Source: Dehalococcoidia bacterium
Lineage (GTDB): Bacteria; Chloroflexota; Dehalococcoidia; Lucifugimonadales; QGNO01
Reading direction: 5' to 3'
Length of the DNA: 64,000 nt
NCBI GenBank assembly: GCA_965249115.1
Contig: CBDFLI010000002.1
Span: 1,561,859 to 1,625,858 of the forward strand
Shown: one piece after another, positions 3,100 through 18,713 of the stretch
Layout: every line of letters starts with the position of its first letter
Numbering within the stretch: the stretch's first letter is position 1
Position numbers and translations under genes: made by a program
Notes under the pieces: model-generated
Database searches by the model: none
What the model was told of the DNA's origin: nothing
What the model saw: the letters and a program-made list of their open reading frames with translations, nothing else

Positions 3100-4053
3100 T
3101 TACCGGGGTGTAGCTAAACGCTCGTATTTGGAGAGGCTCCTGAGCTCCCTGGGTGGGTCCATGGTTGAGCCTCTAATTGTAAACGAGACTTCAGCGATAT
3201 ATACGTCACCTTTGGAGTCGACAGCGATGCCATGCGGAGCTATGAACTGCCCAGGGCCTTCCCCTTCCTCTGGGCTGCCAAATCTGCAGACCAACCGCCC
3301 ATTCAGATCGTAAATGCTGACCCTGTGACCGAGACCAGGTGCATCATCCACACCTGCCATCCCGCCGAGTTCACCGATGTAAATGTGGTCTTGCCATAGC
3401 ACCATGGCGTCAGGGCGGTGGATGTTGTTCCACATTTCTAGAAATTTTCCACCAGGATCGAAGATCTGAATCCTGTGGGCTTCACGATCTACTACATAGA
3501 CCCGATCATTCGCGTCTATAGCGATGTTATGCGGTCGGATGAATTGCCCGGCATCAATCCCAGAACTACCCCATGAGAATTTGTAGTCACCGCTTCCCGT
3601 GTACACGTGGATACGGGCATTTCCGTACCCATCTGATATATATATGTCGCCATTACTGGGCATGATAGCAGCCGAAGTAGGGCGGTTAAAAGGCTGACCA
3701 CTCCATTTGGGAGCCGGGTGATTCCGTTGTCCAATCTCCATTAGTTTTTCCCCTTGGGGCGTAAACTTCTGGATTGTGTGGATCCCGTCATCAGCTACGA
3801 GCAATGAGTCATCGTGGGCAATATAAAGTCCGTGGGTTCGGTTGCTGAAGAGCCCCTCTCCGAACGACCTAGTGAAGCTGCCGGCGCTGTCAAAAACCAT
3901 GATCGGGTGCTCGCCACGGGTCAGGACGAATACGTTGTCCCGCGAGTCCACCGCCACGCCCGGACACTCCTGGAACGACATCCCGTCTGGGAGGGTGGGC
4001 CAACCGTCCACATACTTGTACAAAAATTCGTCGGTGCCGTACGTGTCAGACAT
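3100..4053 (-). CDS. NHL-repeat beta-propeller protein (peptidyl-hydroxyglycine amidating lyase-like)
   Basis: Repeated units of the form GQFxxPHGIAVDxxxxVYVxDxxxHRIQxF occur several times across 317 aa. Confidence 0.6.
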   Translation of the reverse strand: MSDTYGTDEFLYKYVDGWPTLPDGMSFQECPGVAVDSRDNVFVLTRGEHPIMVFDSAGSFTRSFGEGLFSNRTHGLYIAHDDSLLVADDGIHTIQKFTPQGEKLMEIGQRNHPAPKWSGQPFNRPTSAAIMPSNGDIYISDGYGNARIHVYTGSGDYKFSWGSSGIDAGQFIRPHNIAIDANDRVYVVDREAHRIQIFDPGGKFLEMWNNIHRPDAMVLWQDHIYIGELGGMAGVDDAPGLGHRVSIYDLNGRLVCRFGSPEEGEGPGQFIAPHGIAVDSKGDVYIAEVSFTIRGSTMDPPRELRSLSKYERLATPR

Positions 4054-4239
4054 TTGTCACACCTCAATACCTCCTGATGGACCCCTGAAATGGCCGAGTG
4101 CCCATTATTTACTGAATTTCGAATCAGTTCAATGCCCCGTGGGGTTACGTGAGACAGTACCCTATCTGATAGTGCCCTATTAGAAAGTCGAATCCCAATC
4201 CGGCGCCAAGAACATTCAGGACATTTCTTTGCCTGCCTC

Positions 4240-5268
4240 ATGAATAACCGGCGAAAGACAGGCTACAAGCACAGTCGTATAATGGTCGCTGATTGTTTTG
4301 CTATGGAAAAGAAACTCGAAACGTTTGAAGAATTCAGGAAGTCCCTCAACTACGGGTCCAGGACGGACCTGCTATTCAAGGTGTTAGGTGGGAACAATCT
4401 AACGGACGACGAAGTGGCCGAGTTCCTGAGAGGCCTCCTAGAGAGGCTCGGAGAGAGTTTCGATTCAAAAGATTATGAGTGGCTGTTGGAATATTGCTAC
4501 GAGTGGCAGGCATATGGATACGCACCCAAGGAAGGCTCCACTCCAAACTTCAAATACGATACAGGGCCTTGGGCCGATATAAAAAAGCCGTTGTCAGCTA
4601 GCAAAGTAGCTCTAATTTCTACCGGCGGCCTCTATCTTGAAGGAGATGATCCTCTGGGTCCAAATGGTCCATCACAGGAGGAAGCAATACCCAAGATTCA
4701 GGATTTTTTGCGAGATGCCCCTCAGCTCTCTACGATCCCGCGAGATTTTGACCCCAAAAAGATAAGAGTACGTCACCCAGGGTATGACATAAGGGGTACA
4801 AGGAACGACTATAACGTGGTATTTCCGATTGATCGCCTGACCGAATTATCAGAAGAGGGATTAATTGGAGACGTAGCAGAAAACAACTATTCGTTCGTCG
4901 GAGCCACGTCTCAAAAGAGATTGTTGGCCGATTTCGCTCCACAATGGGCTGAGCAAATTCTTGCTGAACAGGTTGATGCGGTACTACTGGTAGGTGCCTG
5001 ACCGGTTTGCCACGTGTCCGTCGGACACACAGCTAGAGTCCTAGAAGAGGCCGGAATCCCGACTGTTTGTATATATATTCATGCCTTTCGGCACCACGCT
5101 TTCAATCTAAAATTGCCCCGTGCCTTGATTACGCCACATATTCTGGGAAGAACTATCGGGCATCCGCACGATCGGGAAACACAGCGATTGGTGGTGAAAT
5201 CAGCCCTAGATCTGCTAGAAACTGCGACTGAACGCAATACAGTAATCGAGTTTGTATCAACGCGATAA
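4240..5268 (+). CDS. GrdB/PrdB-family (glycine/sarcosine/betaine/D-proline reductase B-like) selenoprotein, UGA read as Sec
   Basis: ORFs 4240-5001 and 5014-5268 are in the same frame and separated only by TGA 4999-5001. The joined sequence reads DAVLLVGA-U-PVCHVSVGHTARVLEEAGIPTV, the U/C-P-x-C-H motif of this family. The upstream NVVFPIDRLTELSEEGLIG is also family-typical. The true start may be the ATG at 4303. Confidence 0.7.
4999..5001 (+). other. In-frame UGA, predicted selenocysteine codon
   Basis: The TGA sits at the position occupied by Sec or Cys in the U/CxxC motif of GrdB-like proteins. The reading frame continues for 89 more codons. Confidence 0.65.
5014..5028 (+). other. SECIS-like hairpin 12 nt downstream of the UGA
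   Basis: GTGTCC-GTC-GGACAC forms a perfect 6-bp stem with a G/U-containing apex. Its spacing from the UGA is compatible with bacterial SECIS elements. Confidence 0.4.
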
Positions 5269-5387
5269 TTCTGAAAGCCACTAAATGTGTTCAGGATATA
5301 GCGGCTAGAAGATCGCCGCGTTGGCTGCTCCTGGAGCACTTCCTAGCGAACGCGCCATGTTACTAAAACATTTTACGAGGAGAAGGG

Positions 5388-6302
5388 ATGCAATTTGGAC
5401 TGAACCTACTCAACTTTGGCCCTGGGGTTAGTCCCTCGGCCCTCCTGCGATGGGCCCTTATTGCCGAGTCGCTTGGCTACCATTTTGCCATGATCTCTGA
5501 CCACGTGGCGGTTACTACCGAAGTGGGCGCAAGGTACCCCGAGCCCTTCTACGACGCCTATGCTACCTTATCCTGGCTCGCGGGTCAGACAAAACACATC
5601 AAACTGGGCACCACAGTAATTGTCGTCCCTTACCGTCATCCGGTGCTCATGGCCCGACTTGGTGCCAACCTTGACAATCTGAGTGGCGGGCGCTTCATTT
5701 TCGGCGTCGGGGTGGGTAGCGCTCGGACCGAATATGAAGCACTCGGCATCCCGTTCCACCGGCGTGGCGCTATCGCCAACGAATATTTGTCCGCCATAAA
5801 AGAGTTGTGGACCAGCAAGACGGCATCCTTCAGCGGAAGCTACGTTAGTTTTAAAGACGTCTCCGGAATCGATACCCTGCAAAAGCCTCACCCGCCCATC
5901 TGGGTCGGCGGCAGCAGTGACCCTGCTCTTAAACGAGCTGTCCGCTATGGTGAAGCCTGGCACCCCAACGGAGTCCGTCTAGACTGGCTACGTAACAGTG
6001 GACTGCCGAGTATACGTAAATTCGCTGAAGAATTCCAACTTCCAGTCCCTGCGTTGGCGCCCCGAATTCGTCTGACCGTTACCGCTACAACGCGGCCCGA
6101 GGACACGCGCCTAGTCGGCGAAGGGACCATTGGTCAGGTGCGCCGAGACCTTGAAGCATTGAGTTCCCTGGGCGCAAGCCACATCCTCTTCGACTGGTAT
6201 ACTGGCGATCTTGAAGCGACCCGGCGCCACGAGTCCGAGTGGGGTATGCTGGCCCTCCTCGCTGACCAAGTTCTCGACATGGAAAAACAAACCCTCCGGT
6301 AA
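5388..6302 (+). CDS. LLM-class (luciferase-like) flavin/F420-dependent oxidoreductase
   Basis: The N-terminus MQFGLNLLNFG, followed by AESLGYHFAMISDH and FIFGVGVG, gives the typical luciferase-like monooxygenase family pattern. Confidence 0.8.
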   Translation: MQFGLNLLNFGPGVSPSALLRWALIAESLGYHFAMISDHVAVTTEVGARYPEPFYDAYATLSWLAGQTKHIKLGTTVIVVPYRHPVLMARLGANLDNLSGGRFIFGVGVGSARTEYEALGIPFHRRGAIANEYLSAIKELWTSKTASFSGSYVSFKDVSGIDTLQKPHPPIWVGGSSDPALKRAVRYGEAWHPNGVRLDWLRNSGLPSIRKFAEEFQLPVPALAPRIRLTVTATTRPEDTRLVGEGTIGQVRRDLEALSSLGASHILFDWYTGDLEATRRHESEWGMLALLADQVLDMEKQTLR

Positions 6303-6628
6303 TACAGGATCAGATTTGCCGAATGACCAAATTGCGCAAATGCCCCTAATCAGACCGAGGGAGTCACTCAAAATGAAGGAAGCCACCAGAGCCTCCAACG
6401 AAGAGTTTGAGATCTTTTATACGAGACCCTCTTTTCCCTTGACAGGGACCTTCTTCCCGAAGAAAAACAGGATCTCGCAGATCGATATCCTAGATCTTGG
6501 AGAAAGCTATAGCATCACTCTAACCTTTGAAAAGGATCCCAGAAAAGGCGTTAGCGTGAAGTCAGGACTACTGAGGATCACGACGAAGTGGAGAGATGAC
6601 AACATGACATTTCAAGTGGACCCCATCA

Positions 6629-7564
6629 TCAGGACAGCGGTGAGGCTAAAATAAGAGAGTCTACCGCTGGGGTGTCTCGTAAACCTTCATCCGATTGTAA
6701 GGCTTGTGGATGTTCCAGTAAACACCTTTGTGGGCTCACTGCATGGAACACCTGACCCGGTGACCGATAGCCCAGGGCTTGATGGGGCCGCTCTTGGTTG
6801 TAGAAGGCCAGATAAGCCCCAATCCCTTTTCTGGCCTCAGTCCCATTTTGGTATGCCTTCAGGTACACCTCCTCGTACTTGATGCTGCGCCACAGCCGTT
6901 CCACGAAGACGTTGTCCATGCACCGGCCCCTGCCGTCCATGCTCACTTGAACGCCTTGCGCCAGCAGCATGCTGGTGAAGGCCTCGCTGGTGAACTGGCT
7001 GCCCTGGTCGGTGTTGAAGATCTGTGGCCGACCCTTGCTCAAGGCCTCTTCCAGAGCCGCAACACAGAAGTCTACCTCCAGGGTGTTGGACAGCCGCCAG
7101 GCCAGCACGTAGCGGCTGTGCCAGTCCATGATGGCCATCAAGTAGAGGAAACCCCGAGCCATGGGTATGTAGGTGATGTCGGTGGCCCACACCTGGTTGA
7201 CCCGGTTGATCTCCAGCCCCCTGAGCAAGTACGGATAGACCTTATGCCCTGGGTTTGGCTTGCTGGTGTTGGGACGCCGGTAGATGGCCTCCAGGCCTAT
7301 CAGCTGCATCAGCCGGCGGACCCGCTTGCGGTTGACCTGGTGTCCGTGATTTCTGAGCCAGGCAGTCATCCTTCTGGAGCCGTAGAAAGGTGTCTTCAGG
7401 TACTGTTGGTCTATGAGGGCCATCAACTCCATGTCCTCGGCGCCGGCCTCGGTTGGCAGGTAGTACAACGAGGAGCGGCTGATACCCAGCAAGGCGCACT
7501 GGCGCACCAGAGACAGCTTCGGTTCTTCTCGGTCAATCATGGCCCGGCGTTGGGACCGGCTCAC
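6629..7564 (-). CDS. IS3 transposase OrfB (DDE/rve integrase core), -1 frame relative to OrfA
   Basis: The sequences [21 protein letters not shown] and [15 protein letters not shown] give the DDE triad context of the rve domain. Confidence 0.9.
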
Positions 7565-7845
7565 AACCCGAAGCTCCGTGACAAAAAATCCCGTTCCACC
7601 TTGAGCTGCCCAATCTGTTGGTAGAGCTGGGCAGTGAGGACCTCTTGGTCCTTCTCCTGGCGTCCAGCACCATTTTCAAAGAGGTGCGGCGCCCCCTGAG
7701 TCAAGGCCTTCTTCCAGGCATGGATCTGGCTCGGGTGGACTTCAAACCGGCTGGCCAGCTCTGCAATGGTGTGCTCCCCCTGGAGCGCGGCCAAAGCCAC
7801 TTTGGCCTTGAAGACTGGGCTGTGCTTCTTACGTGTTTGCTTCAT
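7561..7845 (-). CDS. IS3 transposase OrfA (HTH)
   Basis: The 94-aa sequence [39 protein letters not shown] is typical of IS3 OrfA. Confidence 0.9.
7582..7588 (-). other. Putative -1 programmed frameshift heptamer T TTT TTG (IS copy 1)
   Basis: The minus strand reads GAT TTT TTG TCA. A -1 slip gives [22 protein letters not shown], which runs directly into OrfB. Confidence 0.6.
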
Positions 7846-8661
7846 GTCCTGCTCCTTCTTTCCGTCCTATTTTAGGAGCGGGACTCTCTCTTAGCCACCT
7901 GTCCGAATTTTGGGGTCCACCTCAATTGTTCTTTTATAACCAACTCAAGGTTCAGAGTGAGATGATGCGCGTCACCGAAACCAAGGTCGCATCCTCGGGT
8001 AGGACCGTTACGATCCAGGCTCCGAAGGCACCGGCCGTAGGATTCTTCGATGGCGACCTGAGTGGAATACTCTTTTGCCCCGGGCTCATAGTAGATATAC
8101 CGCGTGGAAAGGACATAGTTGTAGCCGTCATAGACACTCAGGCCAAGAGTTCCCGTCTCAGGGTGGAGAAGCATGAACTCAATGTGGAGGGTGCCACGCT
8201 TAGCCTCGAAGCTGAAGGAGAGCTACGCTACGAACTCTCGGTTCACGACCCTTCTGACGCCGGGGAGTTTAGGGTAGAGATCGAGAGGCGCAGAGAAAAC
8301 CTAAAGGCTCTGAGGGTCTTAGCGTCATCAGATGAGGGGTTGCATGAAAGTGGGGCGTGGACTCCAGCGAAACCTTCGAAAAGGAGGGTAATAGTAGGAC
8401 ACTCCAGTCCATTCTGGGTTGAAGAGGGGAGGTTTGAGGAGGCTTTGGAGAACTCTGAACCTGAGAAACGCAAATCCAAAGTAAAGCTTTTAGTAATAGG
8501 AGACCCTGCTCCAGACACGGACTACCGGATACGGCTGGTAGCAAACCGAGGCTGGATGAAGAAAGATCAAGTGGACGAAACGTCCATATATTTCAAATGA
8601 CCCATACCCACCGATTGGGATTAAGCTTCAGGATCGAACCTGACTATTTGGTCGGCACACC

Positions 8662-9519
8662 ATGGCATCAAAACCAACTCAGCCCCTGTCCAAAGAAGAC
8701 ATCGTCTCCATAGACGGCATGCGGGCCAAGTTCTTTCTCGTGGTAATGTTGTGCGAAATCCCGCAGTTCCTGGAACTCTGGGAACAGGCCAGGCGGCCCG
8801 TTACAGAGGTCATTGAGAGGCTAGGACCGGACCTCAAGGAGCGCCTGCTATCTGTAAGTCCAGAGAGCATAGCCGCCCAAATGGGAGCAATATCTGAATC
8901 CCATTTCTCGCATTCAGATGATAGCCCAGGCACCGAAGGGACAAAGGCAGCATTGCGTTCATTATTATTGGTGCTTGGAACTTTGGATGCAAATTCCGAA
9001 GGCAGAACTGCCGCTGATTACTTTGCTAGTCTGGAACGCATCGTTGAACCACTTGGCGTCCCTGACTTGGTCACAATACTAGTGTTTCTTGATTTCAGGC
9101 GATGGAAACTGGATAACCTTTTCAGCAATACCCATCCCACAGAAGGACCGTTGGTGGACGCCCTCCAGATAGAGGTATTGGGCGCCATGACCGACCTAAG
9201 CCCATTGGAACTGACGCAGGAAACGCCCGGGAAAATCATAAGTCGCTCTCTAAGAAAAATAGGGCCCCTGAGCTGGCACATGAAACGTTATGACCTTTGG
9301 GGCAGAGTAGACCTTTGGCTGGTCAACGTCGTATTCGGACAGACACACGAGGAGATCTCTAAAAGTTTGGAGTCTGACGAATCCCGCGTTATAAAAGGGA
9401 GACCCTACTCGTGGATAACTAGGCAGGTACCTGATACGAGCCGTCTTTTGGGTGTGCACAGACGAGGCAGACCAAGAAAACTCACCGTTCTCGATCACTG
9501 GAATGACATGATCAAGTAG
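8662..9519 (+). CDS. Hypothetical protein with C-terminal HTH-like segment and AT-hook-like RRGRPRK
   Basis: 285-aa ORF. The C-terminus GQTHEEISKSL...SWITRQVPDTSRLLGVHRRGRPRK resembles a sigma-region-4/LuxR-type HTH plus an AT-hook. A strong terminator follows. Confidence 0.5.
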   Translation: MASKPTQPLSKEDIVSIDGMRAKFFLVVMLCEIPQFLELWEQARRPVTEVIERLGPDLKERLLSVSPESIAAQMGAISESHFSHSDDSPGTEGTKAALRSLLLVLGTLDANSEGRTAADYFASLERIVEPLGVPDLVTILVFLDFRRWKLDNLFSNTHPTEGPLVDALQIEVLGAMTDLSPLELTQETPGKIISRSLRKIGPLSWHMKRYDLWGRVDLWLVNVVFGQTHEEISKSLESDESRVIKGRPYSWITRQVPDTSRLLGVHRRGRPRKLTVLDHWNDMIK

Positions 9520-9547
9520 TACATATTTTTTGCCTCAGTTCCCCTTT

Positions 9548-9580
9548 AGGCTTGGTACGTGTAGTTACCAAGCCTTTTTT
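9548..9580 (+). terminator. Rho-independent terminator
   Basis: AGGCTTGGTA-cgtgtagt-TACCAAGCCT forms a perfect 10-bp stem and is followed by TTTTT. Confidence 0.75.
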
Positions 9581-9595
9581 CATAGGTGGGAACCA

Positions 9596-9889
9596 ATGTA
9601 CGAAAAGAAAACGAGTACAAAGAAGAACCGCAGATTAGGTGAGACATTCGATAGTGACGGGCTTGAGCAGAAGCGTTACAAAGTGAGTATTCGAAACGCC
9701 ATAACTGGCGACATCTCCGAGCGGATCTCTCGACTCCACGCTTCAGCAATTGAGGAGGCGATCACCGTTCCGTCTTTGAGTGCTGGGTCAGGGCTGACGA
9801 GCAGTCGTCACCAGCGCTCGAGGGCGAGCCCCAGCGCTGACCTTAGTAGTGACCTCAACGCTCAGCGCTCACTGCCAGTGCTTGAGTAG
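9596..9889 (+). CDS. Hypothetical small basic protein
   Basis: The ATG at 9596 follows a GGTGGGA RBS-like sequence. The product is 97 aa with no recognisable motif. Confidence 0.4.
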   Translation: MYEKKTSTKKNRRLGETFDSDGLEQKRYKVSIRNAITGDISERISRLHASAIEEAITVPSLSAGSGLTSSRHQRSRASPSADLSSDLNAQRSLPVLE

Positions 9890-9923
9890 TCGAATCCACC
9901 CAGACATTAGGAAGGACAAAGAG

Positions 9924-10367
9924 ATGGACAATAAATGTAACCATTGCGACTTTGAAGCAAAGACCTCTCAAGGACTGGCTGGACACAGACGGCTGGCCCA
10001 TACCGAAGACGTTGAGCACTCGACCGACCCAACGGTCATTCCATCAGAGGCGAACCCGGTCCAAAACGCTGCGCTCGACGAGAACTTGAGTGTTGAAGAT
10101 CCTGCACTCGAACTCTCAAATCCAGAACGTGACTCCCCGAAGTCCAAGTTCTCGACTTCCATGTATTTGGATAGTGAATCGGATGGTCGGCGTTGGCATA
10201 TCGATCCGGCACCAATCTGTCACACCTGTGGTCAGCAAACCCAACACTGGGTGGAATGCGATACCTGCCAGAAACTCCTTCCCGTGAACCACACCGGGCG
10301 GTGCTGGGCAGACGGAGACAACATGGGAATGACCTGGGACGAATTGATTGAATCAACCTACAGGTGA
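9924..10367 (+). CDS. Zinc-finger protein (N-terminal C2H2-type finger, C-terminal CxxC...CxxC ribbon)
   Basis: The ATG at 9924 follows AGGAAGGA. CNHCDFEAKTSQGLAGHRRLAH fits C-x2-C-x12-H-x4-H, and CHTCGQQTQHWVECDTC is a Cys4 ribbon. Confidence 0.55.
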   Translation: MDNKCNHCDFEAKTSQGLAGHRRLAHTEDVEHSTDPTVIPSEANPVQNAALDENLSVEDPALELSNPERDSPKSKFSTSMYLDSESDGRRWHIDPAPICHTCGQQTQHWVECDTCQKLLPVNHTGRCWADGDNMGMTWDELIESTYR

Positions 10368-10537
10368 CAAAAGTTGATCGAAATTTGAATGTCGGACATT
10401 CGGGCTCACGAGATCGTATCTTTTTGGAGCAACGGAGCAACGAATCGATCATATGTCGCTATTGAATATATAATGCCAACGTAGAAATAGGAGCCCTTGA
10501 TAATCGATTGCGTTTCTAAAGTTCGCGGAGGGTTGTC

Positions 10538-12120
10538 ATGAACGTAGTAGAAATTCTCGAATTCTATTTCCCATGGAGGTTTGCTCCAGGATCCGATTTC
10601 TTTGAATCTGCAGAGGGGAAACTGATTGTTGACAGGCTCCAAAGGATTCCTGATGAGCCTCTAACACTCACACACCTGAATCAGCTTTTGCATTTGAATA
10701 GTGAGGCTGGTGTTACAGAGGGGGCGTTTCGCTACTACTTCCTCACCGATGCTCAAAATCACCCTTATTCGTTGCAATCACTCTCAGTTCCTAAGCCTAG
10801 CCCCATGCCAGACCGGGAGATAACCACAATTGGACAATTAGAATGGGGAATTGAGCGTTTCTATACCGACGCACTCCTTTATTACGGGAACCTTCGGTCT
10901 GCGTATCGGCATTTGCGTGATAAATCGTTTGATGAGCTCACCAATATGTACAAAAACAAAAGAATCGATTCGAGAGGTATGAGGCTCCGAGGACAAATCA
11001 TGCCACTTATAGACGTCCAGGTGGACGATCGATATTTGATTTCAGAGCTAGCCTGCAAGGCGTACGGGGAAGTATCTGGAGCAGCGACAACTCCAATCAT
11101 TGAACAGTTGGTTGCTGCATACAATCGGAGGGGAGGAACCACTACCTCCATAAAAACGCTTGTGGAAAGTGCAAACGCAGAAAACGAAGACGATTTCCAG
11201 GCGCAGTTAGCTTTCCCGTTGGCCACGGAAGAAATTGAAAACGAGCAAGTAGAGTCAGAAGAGGAGCTACGTGCAAAGCTTGGAGGTGTCCTCGAGCGAT
11301 TCCGGTCTGCGAGACAACGGGCCTTAGAGAACACCAAAATCTATTTGTCAATTTGTAACGAACTCGACGTCTATGTGGCGACTAGCATGCGCAACCGAAC
11401 CGATTTTAGAACAGCCGCAGAGTCAATACGCAGAATATTTTCCGACCCGCGCCTTGACGCTTATCAGTTGCGCTATTTCGACCCCACTTTGAGTGCTGCA
11501 AACACACATGAGGACGAAGGGCTCATCGAATGTCTGATGGTAAAGAGAGCTAAAGTGATCGTCTACTTTGCTCAGGAACGCGACAGTTGGGGAAAAGATA
11601 GTGAGGCTTCAATGGCCTTAAGTCAGGGCAAGCCAGTAATAATATACTGCCCTCCGACCCCGGAAGGTCGGCAGAGGATGAAAATGTTCAGAGATGAGCC
11701 TGTCTCAGAAGTCTCCTGCCAGGATTTTGGGTGGAGGCAGTCCTACGGTTAGCGATCACGACCACCCTGATAGAGTATGAAATACTGCAAAATAAGCCGT
11801 CATGCCCGCGAAAGCGGGAATCCAGAAAGATAGCATACTGGAGCTCTCAGCTTTATGAGACAGGCTCAGATGTCAATCCTTTGAGCCGACTGGTTGATCT
11901 TCAGACTGGTGTTGCGGTCGGAGCCTACATCACGGACGAACTTGGGACCGTTACCGAAATCCTCAGCCGTATATTTTCCAATTCCATGGAACATCAAATT
12001 GAGGGAGATCAGGGTTACTATAGACTGAGGGAGCATCTGACGAACAGTGCCGTTCGTCTTATCACTAACGACCGCACGATCACTGAGACGTTCTGGAATT
12101 ACTACCACGACGTAGTGTAA
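10538..12120 (+). pseudogene. Hypothetical protein with C-terminal NDT/SLOG-like Rossmannoid module, interrupted by a MITE
   Basis: ORFs 10538-11752 and 11731-12120 fuse in frame (...MKMFRD|VNPLSRLVDLQ...) when 11696-11867 plus one AGAT copy is removed. This gives a reconstructed ORF of about 468 aa. Confidence 0.6.
11696..11867. mobile_element. MITE-like 172-bp insertion
   Basis: Perfect 12-bp terminal inverted repeats, GAGCCTGTCTCA (11696-11707) and TGAGACAGGCTC (11856-11867). The flanking direct repeat is AGAT (11692-11695 and 11868-11871). There is an internal CCCGCGAAAGCGGG hairpin and no coding capacity. Confidence 0.7.
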
Positions 12121-12206
12121 GCAAAATCTCCGTAATTTCTTACTAGATTGGGCACACAAACCTGGCATTTACGTCTCGTACGCCGATGTGCGAAGGAGTT
12201 ATCGAG

Positions 12207-13223
12207 ATGGATGAGGTGGGAATAGAAGGTCTTCATGACTTGATCGTTTGCTATTTGGATCAAATGGATCAGGTCCAACCGGGGCCCACAACGATATTCA
12301 AGACTTATTCGTCCCAAATAGATCTTGAGACGAAGATCTGGCATTACTACCACAAGATTGAAGCGACCAGTCACCATACCGCTCGAGTGGTCAAATTATC
12401 TAACGAAGTCAGGAATCGATTGAAGGAGATGGTTGAAACGATGCCGATTGGATTGGATAAGGGTACAACCGAGATCAGCGTTACGTTGGAAAATCGGGAA
12501 ATCCTATTCGAAATCGACGCCTTTTTTGCAGCTGCTCGCTCATCTCTGGATTTCCTGGCATCCATCATCAGTCGGTATATCAAGGGCCTCGACATTGATA
12601 CATTCAAACGAGCAGACAAGATCCTTGGCAAAAGTAGCCATGCTGTCGCGAAAACGGTCAAAGAAAGTTGGGCTAATTGGGCAGAAGATCTGGTCACCTA
12701 TCGAGATCATTTGCTGCACAGGGGAGTCTTGCCCACTACCGTCGGAACTCATGTGATGGTGACGACGCCTGGCTCTACGGATTCGAGTATCGACAATATA
12801 TTAAGCTCAGACCGATTTGGCCCAACCAGCCCCATCGTATTCCCCCTGCCGCTGAAACCCAATCCGAAAACGAGGATAACCCGTCTCGATGCTTCCGAGT
12901 CGCAAGAACAAGTTCTTCCAACTGGCGTCGTGGAATCAACCGTAACCGTCCGGTCATCTACTGGTGGCAAACTTCGTGGAATAACAGTGACAGCCAGTCA
13001 GGGGCGAACCGTCGGGCCCATTACTGCTAAAATATCCTCAGAAATATCGTTGAGTGGTGAAGCCGCTTCAAAAACTGTCAAAGCGTACCATTTGGAGACC
13101 GGTTACGTGGAAGGTGAAGCATTATGCAGACAATATTTATATAGATTGTTGACGCTTGGGTACGACGTGATCAACCAACTGATGCAACTCAAGTTTTCCC
13201 ACATAGATATCCCGAATAAATGA
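12207..13223 (+). CDS. Hypothetical protein with HEPN-like R-x4-H motif
   Basis: The ATG at 12207 lies 8 nt after GAAGGAG (the ORF track starts at 12186). An alpha-helical N-terminal half (FEIDAFFAAARSSLDFLASIISRYI) is followed by LVTYRDHLLHRG, with R-DHLL-H at 12702-12719. Confidence 0.5.
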   Translation: MDEVGIEGLHDLIVCYLDQMDQVQPGPTTIFKTYSSQIDLETKIWHYYHKIEATSHHTARVVKLSNEVRNRLKEMVETMPIGLDKGTTEISVTLENREILFEIDAFFAAARSSLDFLASIISRYIKGLDIDTFKRADKILGKSSHAVAKTVKESWANWAEDLVTYRDHLLHRGVLPTTVGTHVMVTTPGSTDSSIDNILSSDRFGPTSPIVFPLPLKPNPKTRITRLDASESQEQVLPTGVVESTVTVRSSTGGKLRGITVTASQGRTVGPITAKISSEISLSGEAASKTVKAYHLETGYVEGEALCRQYLYRLLTLGYDVINQLMQLKFSHIDIPNK

Positions 13224-13292
13224 ATTCGTCAGCCGGACATCAAGGCGGTTGCGCCTAAAAATCGATGACAGGTACGTCTCGATGGAGTGTTA

Positions 13293-13369
13293 TGGTCGGG
13301 GTGAGTGGATTCGAACCACCGGCCTCTACGTCCCGAACGTAGCGCTCTGCCAAGCTGAGCTACACCCCG
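13293..13369 (-). tRNA. tRNA-Pro (anticodon CGG), CCA encoded
   Basis: The minus strand reads CGGGGTGTAGCTCAGCTTGGCAGAGCGCTACGTTCGGGACGTAGAGGCCGGTGGTTCGAATCCACTCACCCCGACCA. This gives a 7-bp acceptor stem, the anticodon loop TT-CGG-GA and a GGTTCGAATCC T-arm. Confidence 0.9.
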
Positions 13370-13429
13370 ATTATTGCGGTCTTTTGGCGAATATTATGTC
13401 TTTTTTTAGGGCGGTAATGTCAACGTCAG

Positions 13430-13465
13430 CGTCCCGAACGTAGCGCTCTGCCAAGCTGAGCTACA
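13430..13465 (-). repeat. Perfect 36-nt duplicate of tRNA-Pro nt 6-41 (5-prime half fragment)
   Basis: 13430-13465 is identical to 13329-13364. Similarity continues in the flanks (GATyrTTGCGG, AATGTCAACG). Confidence 0.85.
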
Positions 13466-13723
13466 TGCAGATCGTTGCGGCCAATGTCAACGATAGCTTC
13501 CTGGCCATTCCTTTATGGGCCTATGTGGGCTTTCGTCTGACTCAGGACAGGCTCTAAAACCCCCAGGTGAAATACCTTTGGGTGAAGTCTCGGGAAGAAC
13601 GGTCAGGAGCAAAAGGGCAGTACACCTTAGATTCTTCGCTTTGCTCAGAATGACAGAGACCTAAGTGGTCATCTCTCGATACTTGCTAGAGGTATCAACA
13701 AGGCTATCGGGACCTGAATCAAG

Positions 13724-17583: not shown

Positions 17584-17889
17584 ATGAGCAGACGACCCCG
17601 CCGTAACCACTCGGCAGAGTTCAAGGCGAAGGTGGCTCTTGCCGCAGTGCGCGGCGACCGGACACTTTCGGAGCTGGCAAGCCAGTTCGATGTGCACCCG
17701 AACCAGATCACGCAATGGAAGACCCAGTTGCTGGATCGGGCGGCGCAGTTATTTGGGGCCGGGCCAGGGCAGGCTGAAAAGCCGGTAGATATGAAGGTCC
17801 TTCACGCCAAGATCGGTGAGCTTGCGTTGGAGAACGATTTTTTAGAGGCCGCGCTCACGAAGGCGGGATTGCCGGGCGCAAGGCGATGA
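17584..17889 (+). CDS. IS3 transposase OrfA (HTH)
   Basis: [38 protein letters not shown] is homologous to OrfA of copy 1. Confidence 0.9.
   Translation: MSRRPRRNHSAEFKAKVALAAVRGDRTLSELASQFDVHPNQITQWKTQLLDRAAQLFGAGPGQAEKPVDMKVLHAKIGELALENDFLEAALTKAGLPGARR
17838..17844 (+). other. Putative -1 programmed frameshift heptamer T TTT TTA (IS copy 2)
   Basis: The sequence reads GAT TTT TTA GAG. A -1 slip gives DFF-RGRAHEGGIAGRKAMIDRD, which runs into OrfB. Confidence 0.6.
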
Positions 17890-18713
17890 TCGACCGCGAT
17901 CACAAGCTGCCTCTCGCCCGCCAGGCAAAGGCAGTGGGCATCAGCCGCAGGAGCATCTACTACCGGCCACGGCCGGTGGGCGAAGCCGGTCTCGGACTGA
18001 TGCGCCGCATCAATGAGCTGCACCTTGAGTATCCGTTTGCAGGCAGTAGGATGATGCGAGGCCTGCTCCGCCAGGAGGGACTCTCCTGCGGGCGTAGACA
18101 CATCGCCACACTGATGCGGCGGATGGGCATCGATGCGCTGTACCGCAAGCCCAACACCAGCCGGCGACGGCCCGGCCATACGGTGTATCCGTACCTGCTG
18201 CGCGGGCTTGAGGTGAGCAGGCCCAACCAGGTGTGGGCAATGGATATCACGTACATTCCGATGGCCAGGGGGTTCGTGTACCTAGCCGCAGTGATGGACT
18301 GGCATAGCCGCAAGGTGCTGGCCTGGCGGGTATCGGTCACAATGGACACAGACTTCTGCGTGGAGGCGCTCGAAGAATCCCTGGGACGCCACGGCGCGCC
18401 GGAGATATTCAACACAGATCAGGGAAGCCAGTTCACAAGTGATGCCTTCACCGGCCTGCTGAAAGCCAATGGGATCCAGATCAGCATGGACGGGAAGGGA
18501 AGCTGGAAGGATAATGTGTTCGTCGAACGGCTGTGGAAGAGCGTCAAGTACGAGGAGGTGTACCTGAGAGCCTACGAATCGGTCCCGGAAGCCAGAACTG
18601 GACTCGGGCGGTACTTCGAGTTTTACAATGCCGGACGGCCCCATTCGAGCCTTGGGGGAATGACGCCGGACCAGTTCTTTGACAGAGCGCCTGCCGAGTC
18701 CGCGGCGGCCTAA
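17886..18713 (+). CDS. IS3 transposase OrfB (DDE/rve)
   Basis: The motifs [21 protein letters not shown] and [15 protein letters not shown] are present. It lies in the -1 frame relative to OrfA. Confidence 0.9.
   Translation: MIDRDHKLPLARQAKAVGISRRSIYYRPRPVGEAGLGLMRRINELHLEYPFAGSRMMRGLLRQEGLSCGRRHIATLMRRMGIDALYRKPNTSRRRPGHTVYPYLLRGLEVSRPNQVWAMDITYIPMARGFVYLAAVMDWHSRKVLAWRVSVTMDTDFCVEALEESLGRHGAPEIFNTDQGSQFTSDAFTGLLKANGIQISMDGKGSWKDNVFVERLWKSVKYEEVYLRAYESVPEARTGLGRYFEFYNAGRPHSSLGGMTPDQFFDRAPAESAAA

Follow-up and report, generated by a model that had tools for sequence, protein, structure and literature searches.

We analysed a window of 64,000 nucleotides of DNA from a Dehalococcoidia bacterium (contig CBDFLI010000002.1, positions 1,561,859 to 1,625,858), in which six plus-strand open reading frames (ORFs), here called P1 to P6, lie between the gene of a luciferase-like monooxygenase (LLM) oxidoreductase and a tRNA-Pro(CGG) gene. 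In a first-pass annotation of this DNA the six had been grouped as a candidate new conflict or defence unit of unassignable proteins. Our results favour a different reading: the stretch from 6.3 to 13.3 kb is probably a foreign accessory islet that consists of at least three independently inherited pieces and is now eroding, not a co-evolved multi-gene system.

The evidence that carries this reading is the behaviour of the homologs. All six window proteins were compared by tblastn with 84 loci that encode a relative of P5, each taken with up to 10 kb on either side where the contig allowed; P5 alone was matched. Relatives of the other five genes were likewise absent from four P6 loci, and the four P2 loci held no relatives of the other cluster genes apart from a weak P3-like ORF. 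Co-localisation was thus seen in none of the 84 P5, 4 P6 and 4 P2 loci, that one weak ORF excepted. With no co-inheritance across the homolog loci, the functional six-gene unit fails the very test that the annotation had proposed for it, and a role in defence is a possibility for individual cargo genes only, not for the cluster.

The foreign character of the region, by contrast with its unity, was borne out. After removal of two insertions, an insertion sequence (IS) of the IS3 family and a miniature inverted-repeat transposable element (MITE), the islet has 49.1% G+C as against 57.7% in the rest of the window. This lies below each of 186 control windows of equal size taken elsewhere (minimum 53.5%, mean 58.1%, standard deviation 1.8). 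The tetranucleotide distance of the islet from the window background is 0.347, nearly twice the largest value among 91 control windows (0.189). Taken together, these two measures indicate a foreign composition; the likeness to the flanks that would have counted against the annotation was not seen. The annotation had noted the low G+C from single 60-nucleotide lines of sequence, and its counts (27 and 24 in two lines of the islet, 38 in a line elsewhere) are exact, as are its coordinates for the six ORFs and for the tRNA gene.

Family scans left most of the islet without a name. Searches of the six proteins against Pfam, NCBIfam, PADLOC and PHROGs (E≤1) returned no significant match, only a sub-threshold zinc finger on P4 and noise; the best PADLOC-DB v2 matches were to short stretches of ZorB and DruE (E 0.0085-0.017). 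These scans also confirmed that the cluster holds neither an integrase nor a known defence signature gene. The description of the proteins as unassignable therefore stands as far as the profile libraries go; it does not stand for P5, which structure prediction places in the fold of nucleoside deoxyribosyltransferases (NDTs) and DNPH1, nor for P2, which belongs to a mobile-element family.

The P5 family

The gene for P5 is interrupted in the window. Its 5' part (10538-11695, plus strand) encodes residues 1-270, which form a helical N-domain, and the greater part of the DNPH1/NDT-like domain, including Y279, S283, R285, S350 and E356, and its 3' part (11868-12120, plus strand), which is in frame once the insertion is removed, encodes a C-terminal beta-rich extension and the last helix. 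Between the two parts lies the MITE (11696-11867), a short non-coding element of 172 bp whose ends are perfect inverted repeats of 12 bp (GAGCCTGTCTCA). An AGAT target duplication (11692-11695 and 11868-11871) borders the MITE, which occurs as a single copy within the 64-kb window. Excision of the MITE with one AGAT copy restores a conserved protein of 468 aa that aligns to its homologs without a gap over the junction, and the split proposed by the annotation was thus correct. The window P5 departs from the consensus at 4 of 88 near-invariant sites, the range in the family being 0-9; since the window copy falls within that range, the insertion looks recent.

At E≤1e-3 the relatives of repaired P5 number more than 2,300. 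Those listed are mostly about 470 aa long and carry no Pfam domain; few have a name in their source, and all such names are "hypothetical protein". When one genome was taken per species, relatives were found in 293 of 185,579 species (0.16%), and their hosts belong to the Acidobacteriota, Planctomycetota, Chloroflexota, Nitrospinota, Proteobacteria, Actinomycetota, Elusimicrobiota and Spirochaetota, together with one Promethearchaeota (Asgard) metagenome-assembled genome. Identity to the window P5 ranges from 42 to 60% in the family, and an alignment of 31 sequences has 58 invariant columns; the invariant stretches include DVYVATSMR, RYFDPT.SA..HEDKGLIECLMV, GKD.E..MALS.GKPV and HPLSRL. No relative was found by tblastn in plasmid and phage collections. 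The sole IMG/VR match to the family (IMGVR_UViG_3300034062_008862; L093:7404-8840) is a divergent, full-length protein of 478 aa that retains DVYVATSMR, LGKDSE and HPLG.

An AlphaFold2 model of P5, built from the 31-sequence alignment (pLDDT 92.5, pTM 0.90), consists of a helical N-domain (residues ~1-270), an alpha/beta domain (~275-390) and a beta-rich tail. For the alpha/beta domain, Foldseek against the PDB gave a probability of 1.0 and target TM-scores of 0.60-0.67 to DNPH1/RCL, MilB, BcmB and NDTs. On this model the C-terminal domain of P5 is predicted to have the NDT/DNPH1 fold that these enzymes share. The sequence signal is weak: Pfam Nuc_deoxyrib_tr was matched, below threshold, by 9 of 16 P5-family domain sequences (best E 0.0027) and a SLOG family by 5 of the 16, while a full-length P5 profile matched none of the PDB sequences.

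The putative active site points in the same direction as the fold. P5 contains the catalytic glutamate motif G-x-x-E-x-G/A, and in a PDB profile search its E356, which is invariant in the 31 sequences, aligned with Glu98 of the Lactobacillus (L. leichmannii) NDT 1f8x, the catalytic nucleophile of that enzyme. The first-pass suggestion of an NDT/SLOG-like module in this product thus proved sound. S283, R285 and S350 are invariant or nearly so. By motif spacing, Y279, S283, R285, S350 and E356 of P5 presumably correspond to Y24, S28, R30, S98 and E104 of DNPH1; the Y-x3-S-x-R motif of P5 and the serine six residues before its glutamate would accordingly mirror Y24, S28, R30 and S98 of DNPH1/RCL. 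The residue numbers agree with those of the DNPH1 literature, in which E104 is the nucleophile, D80 the acid, S98 and S128' the phosphate-site serines and R30 a conserved residue (PMC10603095). Candidates for the counterpart of D80 in P5 are E325 and D326. As modelled, the closest analogues of P5 are nucleotide rather than nucleoside N-glycosidases. P5 differs from DNPH1, MilB, BcmB and the NDTs in its size of 470 aa, with a helical N-domain of about 270 aa and a beta-rich C-terminal extension that these enzymes lack; it differs from DNPH1 and the NDT enzymes also in that its family matches fall below the Pfam threshold and in that the window copy is broken by the MITE.

The neighbourhoods of P5 homologs describe a gene that travels by itself. 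All-versus-all clustering of four neighbours on each side of P5 revealed no conserved partner. The 124 immediate neighbours are mostly housekeeping proteins (aldehyde dehydrogenase, chaperonin, CPSase, Dus, LeuA, SerRS), as were the first contexts inspected, purSQL-purB and prfA-prmC; among the 124 are one Shedu SduA, one rve-domain protein and four 8xMP proteins. A 487-aa GNAT-containing protein neighbours P5 in three loci, and the 487-aa protein that follows the P5 homolog of locus L001 has no similarity to P6. We found no tRNA association of P5 homologs, and no shared flanking repeats around them in five loci examined. Mean identity between P5 proteins is 0.53 within phyla and 0.52 between phyla, with cross-phylum pairs of up to 80%. 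In G+C the P5 gene falls short of its flanks by more than 3 points in 43 of 50 loci (mean -9.3, extreme -20), and this dip reaches no further than about 1 kb beyond either end of the gene; at about 9.5 G+C points below its genome, the window P5 is typical of the family. We conclude that P5 is a stand-alone, strongly conserved gene that is mobile between phyla. One exception to the lack of partners is a 162-aa 8xMP (octameric membrane protein) encoded at position +1 of the P5 homolog in four to five loci, including L003 and L005:9373-9861, which could be an occasional partner or effector of P5.

The other genes of the islet

P2 (8662-9519, plus strand; 285 aa) has a probable C-terminal helix-turn-helix (HTH) and an AT-hook-like tail, GRPRKGGVL..WK. 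When 1.84 billion representatives were scanned exhaustively with HMMER, 47 relatives were found, most of about 285 aa, in which this C-terminal sequence is conserved. The RRGRPRK tail that the annotation had pointed out is present at residue 267, and its GRPRK is conserved in the family. One family member matches Sigma70_r4_2 at 3e-4, which supports the reading of P2 as an HTH and AT-hook protein. P2-family alignments contain no conserved stretch of 7-10 columns, and no P2 relatives were found in plasmids or phages by tblastn or in viral contigs. Three loci, those on long contigs, are informative, and in each of them the P2 homolog has a serine recombinase no more than 6 kb away. The first of these loci (L090) carries a type I restriction-modification (RM) system, the P2 homolog, an HTH protein, a Toprim+AAA_25 primase-helicase and a large serine recombinase. 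The second (L091), which is flanked by transposases, carries a Zot-like ATPase, an HTH protein, the P2 homolog, Mom, ParB, a resolvase and a large serine recombinase; in the third (L092), the P2 homolog directly follows a split serine recombinase. These contexts mark P2 as a backbone gene of integrative mobile elements.

P3 (9596-9889, plus strand; 97 aa) ends in a Ser-rich stretch of low complexity. Directly behind the P2 homolog of L092 lies a small ORF that resembles P3 (tblastn E 8e-4, 33% identity), and locus L089 may have one as well. Between P2 and P3 in the window lies a terminator-like hairpin on the plus strand (9548-9575), with a 10-bp stem followed by TTTTTT. P4 (9924-10367, plus strand; 147 aa) contains both patterns that the annotation had described, a C2H2-type finger (C-x2-C-x12-H-x4-H) and a Cys4 ribbon (C-x2-C-x10-C-x2-C), and shows no similarity to a zinc-ribbon protein encoded upstream of the L090 P2 homolog. 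P3 and P4 are both singletons in 90% identity clustering.

The annotation had treated 6373-8600 as one gene, P1, split by an IS. The element is real: at 6617-7919, on the minus strand, lies an IS3-family element of 58% G+C, with orfA (7561-7845, minus strand; HTH_Tnp_1), orfB (6629-7564, minus strand; HTH_21 and the DDE domains rve and rve_3) and imperfect 21-bp TG...CA inverted repeats (TGGACCCC...GGGGTCCA). No target-site duplication of 3-5 bp was found at its ends, where the flanks read ...CAAG and CCTC.... Upstream of it is P1a (6373-6616, plus strand), an ORF fragment of 81 codons and 45% G+C preceded by the Shine-Dalgarno sequence gagggag; downstream is P1b (7920-8600, plus strand), a remainder of 227 codons with an ATG of its own at 7962. 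P1a and P1b come into frame only on removal of 1301 or 1307 bp. Given the absent duplication, the particular excision lengths required and the ATG in P1b, a P1 gene split by the IS is plausible but not proven, and P1b may be either the continuation of P1a or a separate gene that starts at 7962. In a search that was not exhaustive, no relatives of P1 were found in plasmid or phage collections (tblastn) or in the fetched loci. A second IS3-family element lies at ~17620-18713, with an ORF at 17886-18713 that carries HTH_21, rve and rve_3. Recombination between the two IS3 copies was considered as a cause of the missing duplication and is unlikely, because the copies are just 74% identical.

P6 (12207-13223, plus strand; 338 aa) is modelled as a helical bundle with a beta-rich insert. 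Nine relatives were found, and in the resulting family of 10 sequences the motif Y165-R166-D-x3-H171-x-G173 is invariant; a helix with E102, D115, S119 and R123 is also kept. The RDHLLH sequence at 12702-12719, which the annotation had called HEPN-like, is therefore a conserved R-x4-H motif, whereas the HEPN fold itself gained no support from structure or profiles. In the AlphaFold2 model (pLDDT 76, helical core >90) the R-x4-H motif sits at the C-terminal end of a helix, and a beta-rich insert of about 130 residues precedes the last helix. Foldseek against the PDB and BFVD gave no credible match to the model, and a P6 profile matched no PDB sequence. The profile evidence for HEPN consists of one member in 10 that matches HEPN_Apea at E=0.16, and a PADLOC scan of the family gave nothing consistent. 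P6 thus resembles HEPN RNases in its invariant R-[D]-x3-H, with a polar residue after the arginine, within an all-helical bundle, and differs from them in lacking a HEPN profile or structural match; as a HEPN protein it is unproven.

The P6 homologs stand in four unrelated contexts, and no P6 relatives were found in viral contigs. In one locus the gene lies between those for a MoxR ATPase and Bat/VWA proteins, beside a ParE toxin, and in another it adjoins thyX. A third (L088:75-8675, Logan SRR29063593 contig) is a clear defence island, in the order HTH_26, C5 DNA methylase, 878-aa GHKL (HATPase_c_3) protein, 682-aa protein, P6 homolog, 158-aa PD-(D/E)XK/Mrr-like protein and TIR_2.

The flanks of the islet

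A finer G+C profile is low from ~6200 to 13600 and again from 4000 to 5400, with the LLM gene (5388-6302, assigned by Pfam Bac_luciferase) as a block of high G+C between the two. The DNA of this gene (5369-6302) is 82-88% identical to that of three metagenomic relatives (L094, L095 and L103), and the similarity to the window ends exactly at both ends of the gene; since it is confined to the LLM gene, the neighbourhood of this gene is evidently also variable. Further left lie two ORFs in the same frame, 4240-5001 and 5014-5268, that have a GrdB-like Pfam match and a single in-frame TGA (4999-5001) between them; downstream of this TGA come P-V-C, giving a UxxC motif, and a hairpin of six perfect base pairs, GTGTCC-GTC-GGACAC. 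Judged from these sequence features, the pair (4240-5268; 47.8% G+C) probably encodes a single selenocysteine-containing protein.

At the other end, the tRNA-Pro(CGG) gene (13293-13369) is read from the minus strand and thus has the islet on its 3' side. About 60 bp upstream of the intact tRNA, in the same orientation, is a partial copy of 51 nucleotides (13430-13480, minus strand; 90% identity) that spans the D arm to the anticodon stem, that is, the 5' half, and has a 10-bp direct repeat, AATGTCAACG, on both sides (13416-13492). It may be the scar of an old integration and excision or a local duplication.

Readings of the islet and of P5

The pieces of the islet can be given separate histories. 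P2, probably with P3, would be a DNA-binding backbone module of large-serine-recombinase integrative elements; because the recombinase is gone here, what remains is most likely a relic, to which P1 and P4 perhaps also belonged, these two having no detectable relatives and no assignable role. P5 would be a stand-alone cargo gene, whose intact members may cleave, or transfer from, the N-glycosidic bond of a substrate of the nucleoside-5'-phosphate type by way of a covalent intermediate between the ribosyl group and Glu356, an activity that the N-domain would gate or target; the window copy is inactivated by the MITE. P6 would be a rare stand-alone protein with an invariant RDxxxH, maybe a nuclease-type effector, and the IS3 element and the MITE would be later invaders of dispensable DNA. 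In its atypical composition beside the 3' end of a tRNA gene, its unrelated cargo and its secondary IS and MITE insertions, the islet resembles tRNA-adjacent islands and element relics, and like the latter it has a gene, P2, whose relatives occur in serine-recombinase elements together with primase-helicase, ParB and RM cargo.

Several observations weigh against this reading. Unlike tRNA-adjacent islands, the islet has no integrase or recombinase and no attachment-site (att) repeats, and the low G+C continues to the left of the LLM gene. Specifically, the 3' part of the tRNA (32 nt, ≤3 mismatches) gave no att-like match at the far end of the islet, no exact repeats of at least 10 nt were found at a plausible islet boundary, and the only rve-domain proteins among the six ORFs or in the flanks are those of IS3 elements, with no integrase or recombinase besides. 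No empty site between the LLM gene and the tRNA was demonstrated, the metagenomic contigs with LLM relatives being too short. Serine recombinases do not typically target tRNA genes, and the adjacency to tRNA-Pro is thus unexplained by a relic of such an element, itself a reading drawn from three homolog contexts. The spacing of the ORFs tells in the same direction: all six are co-oriented, the gaps between them are short (34-170 bp; from P1 through P6 they measure 61, 76, 34, 170 and 86 bp), and a Shine-Dalgarno sequence precedes most of the start codons, an arrangement compatible with co-transcription of at least P3-P6. Finally, the window P5 matches neither Nuc_deoxyrib_tr nor related Pfam models above the curated threshold, its biochemical activity would follow from fold and motif, and the status of P1, P3 and P4 as ORFans is provisional, as the homolog searches behind it were not exhaustive.

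What P5 does may be read in more than one way. It is possible, though we would hold to it only tentatively, that the family, hitherto undescribed, consists of single-gene mobile conflict modules: a helical domain with a sensory or regulatory role would govern an N-glycosidase like DNPH1, by which a nucleotide pool is depleted or damaged, either for abortive infection or with toxic effect. Wherever it occurs, the gene would then stand out as an AT-rich islet of ~1.5-3 kb with sharp edges, set among housekeeping genes. A conflict role of P5 is favoured by its patchy occurrence, transfer between phyla and persistent AT-richness, a role in sanitation by its high conservation and housekeeping neighbours.

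A slightly more doubtful proposal extends the conflict role to the whole stretch, as a defence islet of independent single-gene systems that were acquired separately and one of which was inactivated afterwards, P5 being an abortive-infection or nucleotide-depleting N-glycosidase and P6 a nuclease-type effector. It draws on the patchy occurrence of P5 (293 of 185,579 species), its mobility between phyla and its AT-richness relative to its hosts, on the Shedu SduA and the four 8xMP proteins among its neighbours, and on the P6 homolog in a defence island with a C5 methylase, a GHKL ATPase, a PD-(D/E)XK nuclease and a TIR protein. It also has a precedent in retron Ec86, whose NDT-like effector brings about defence by depletion of nucleoside derivatives (10.1101/2023.08.16.553469). 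The effector of this type II retron (Ec86/Eco1) belongs to the same superfamily as P5 and is a possible functional analogue; unlike it, P5 has no PADLOC match and a different domain architecture, and no reverse transcriptase or msr/msd lies beside P5 or its 84 homologs. Against a defence islet stand the conservation of P5, higher than is usual in immune proteins (58 columns without variation, 42-60% identity to the window copy), its absence from plasmid and phage collections with a single IMG/VR match, and its overwhelmingly housekeeping neighbours. P6 too is without a PADLOC match, and its HEPN fold was not confirmed.

We consider it equally doubtful that P5 is a metabolic enzyme or one that sanitises the nucleotide pool, without any part in conflict, and that it spread through a benefit in soil or sediment niches, whether DNPH1-like (hydrolysing hydroxymethyl-dUMP, hmdUMP), MilB/BcmB-like (N-glycosidases of CMP and hydroxymethyl-CMP, hmCMP) or, like the cytokinin enzyme LOG, a nucleotide hydrolase. 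DNPH1 and MilB are its best structural matches, purifying selection across phyla is strong, no partner gene accompanies it, and it is found in neighbourhoods such as purSQL, prfA/prmC and leuA. Yet the persistently low G+C and the cross-phylum pairs of 80% identity indicate recurrent recent transfer and not stable residence, the distribution is sparse (0.16% of species), and the N-domain of about 270 aa has no counterpart in DNPH1 or MilB.

For the remaining ORFs, it is improbable that P1a/P1b, P3 and P4 are not functional genes at all, but eroded remains in the junk DNA of a dead mobile element or ORFs that arose there by chance. They match no family, P3 and P4 are singletons, P1 is without plasmid or phage relatives, the tail of P3 is Ser-rich, and P1a and P1b may be unrelated since the IS has no target duplication. 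ORFs of 97-308 codons at about 50% G+C, mostly with a Shine-Dalgarno sequence, are however improbable by chance. In addition, G+C by codon position is coding-like (GC1>GC2, GC3>GC2) in P1b, P2 and P4, and a P2 relative is followed by a positional homolog of P3. Least credible of all, and in our view very unlikely, is one new multi-gene conflict or defence system in which P2 and P4 regulate or sense and the P5 glycosidase and a HEPN-like RNase P6 act as effectors: the tight, co-oriented spacing, the foreign composition, the NDT-like fold of P5, the conserved R-x4-H of P6 and the two genes hit by mobile elements would suit it, but no pair of its genes was co-localised in 84 + 4 + 4 loci beyond the weak P2-P3 link, a terminator-like hairpin follows P2, PADLOC matched none of it, and P5 relatives stand alone among housekeeping genes.

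The cluster thus appears to be an ordinary eroding accessory islet, and to call it a new defence system would be to follow a false lead. The residual novelty lies in the P5 family, for which Pfam and NCBIfam have no model, and not in the six-gene cluster. Should P5 prove to be an immune or toxin enzyme, or to have a new nucleotide-sanitising activity, it would represent a new architecture among bacterial nucleotide-targeting enzymes.

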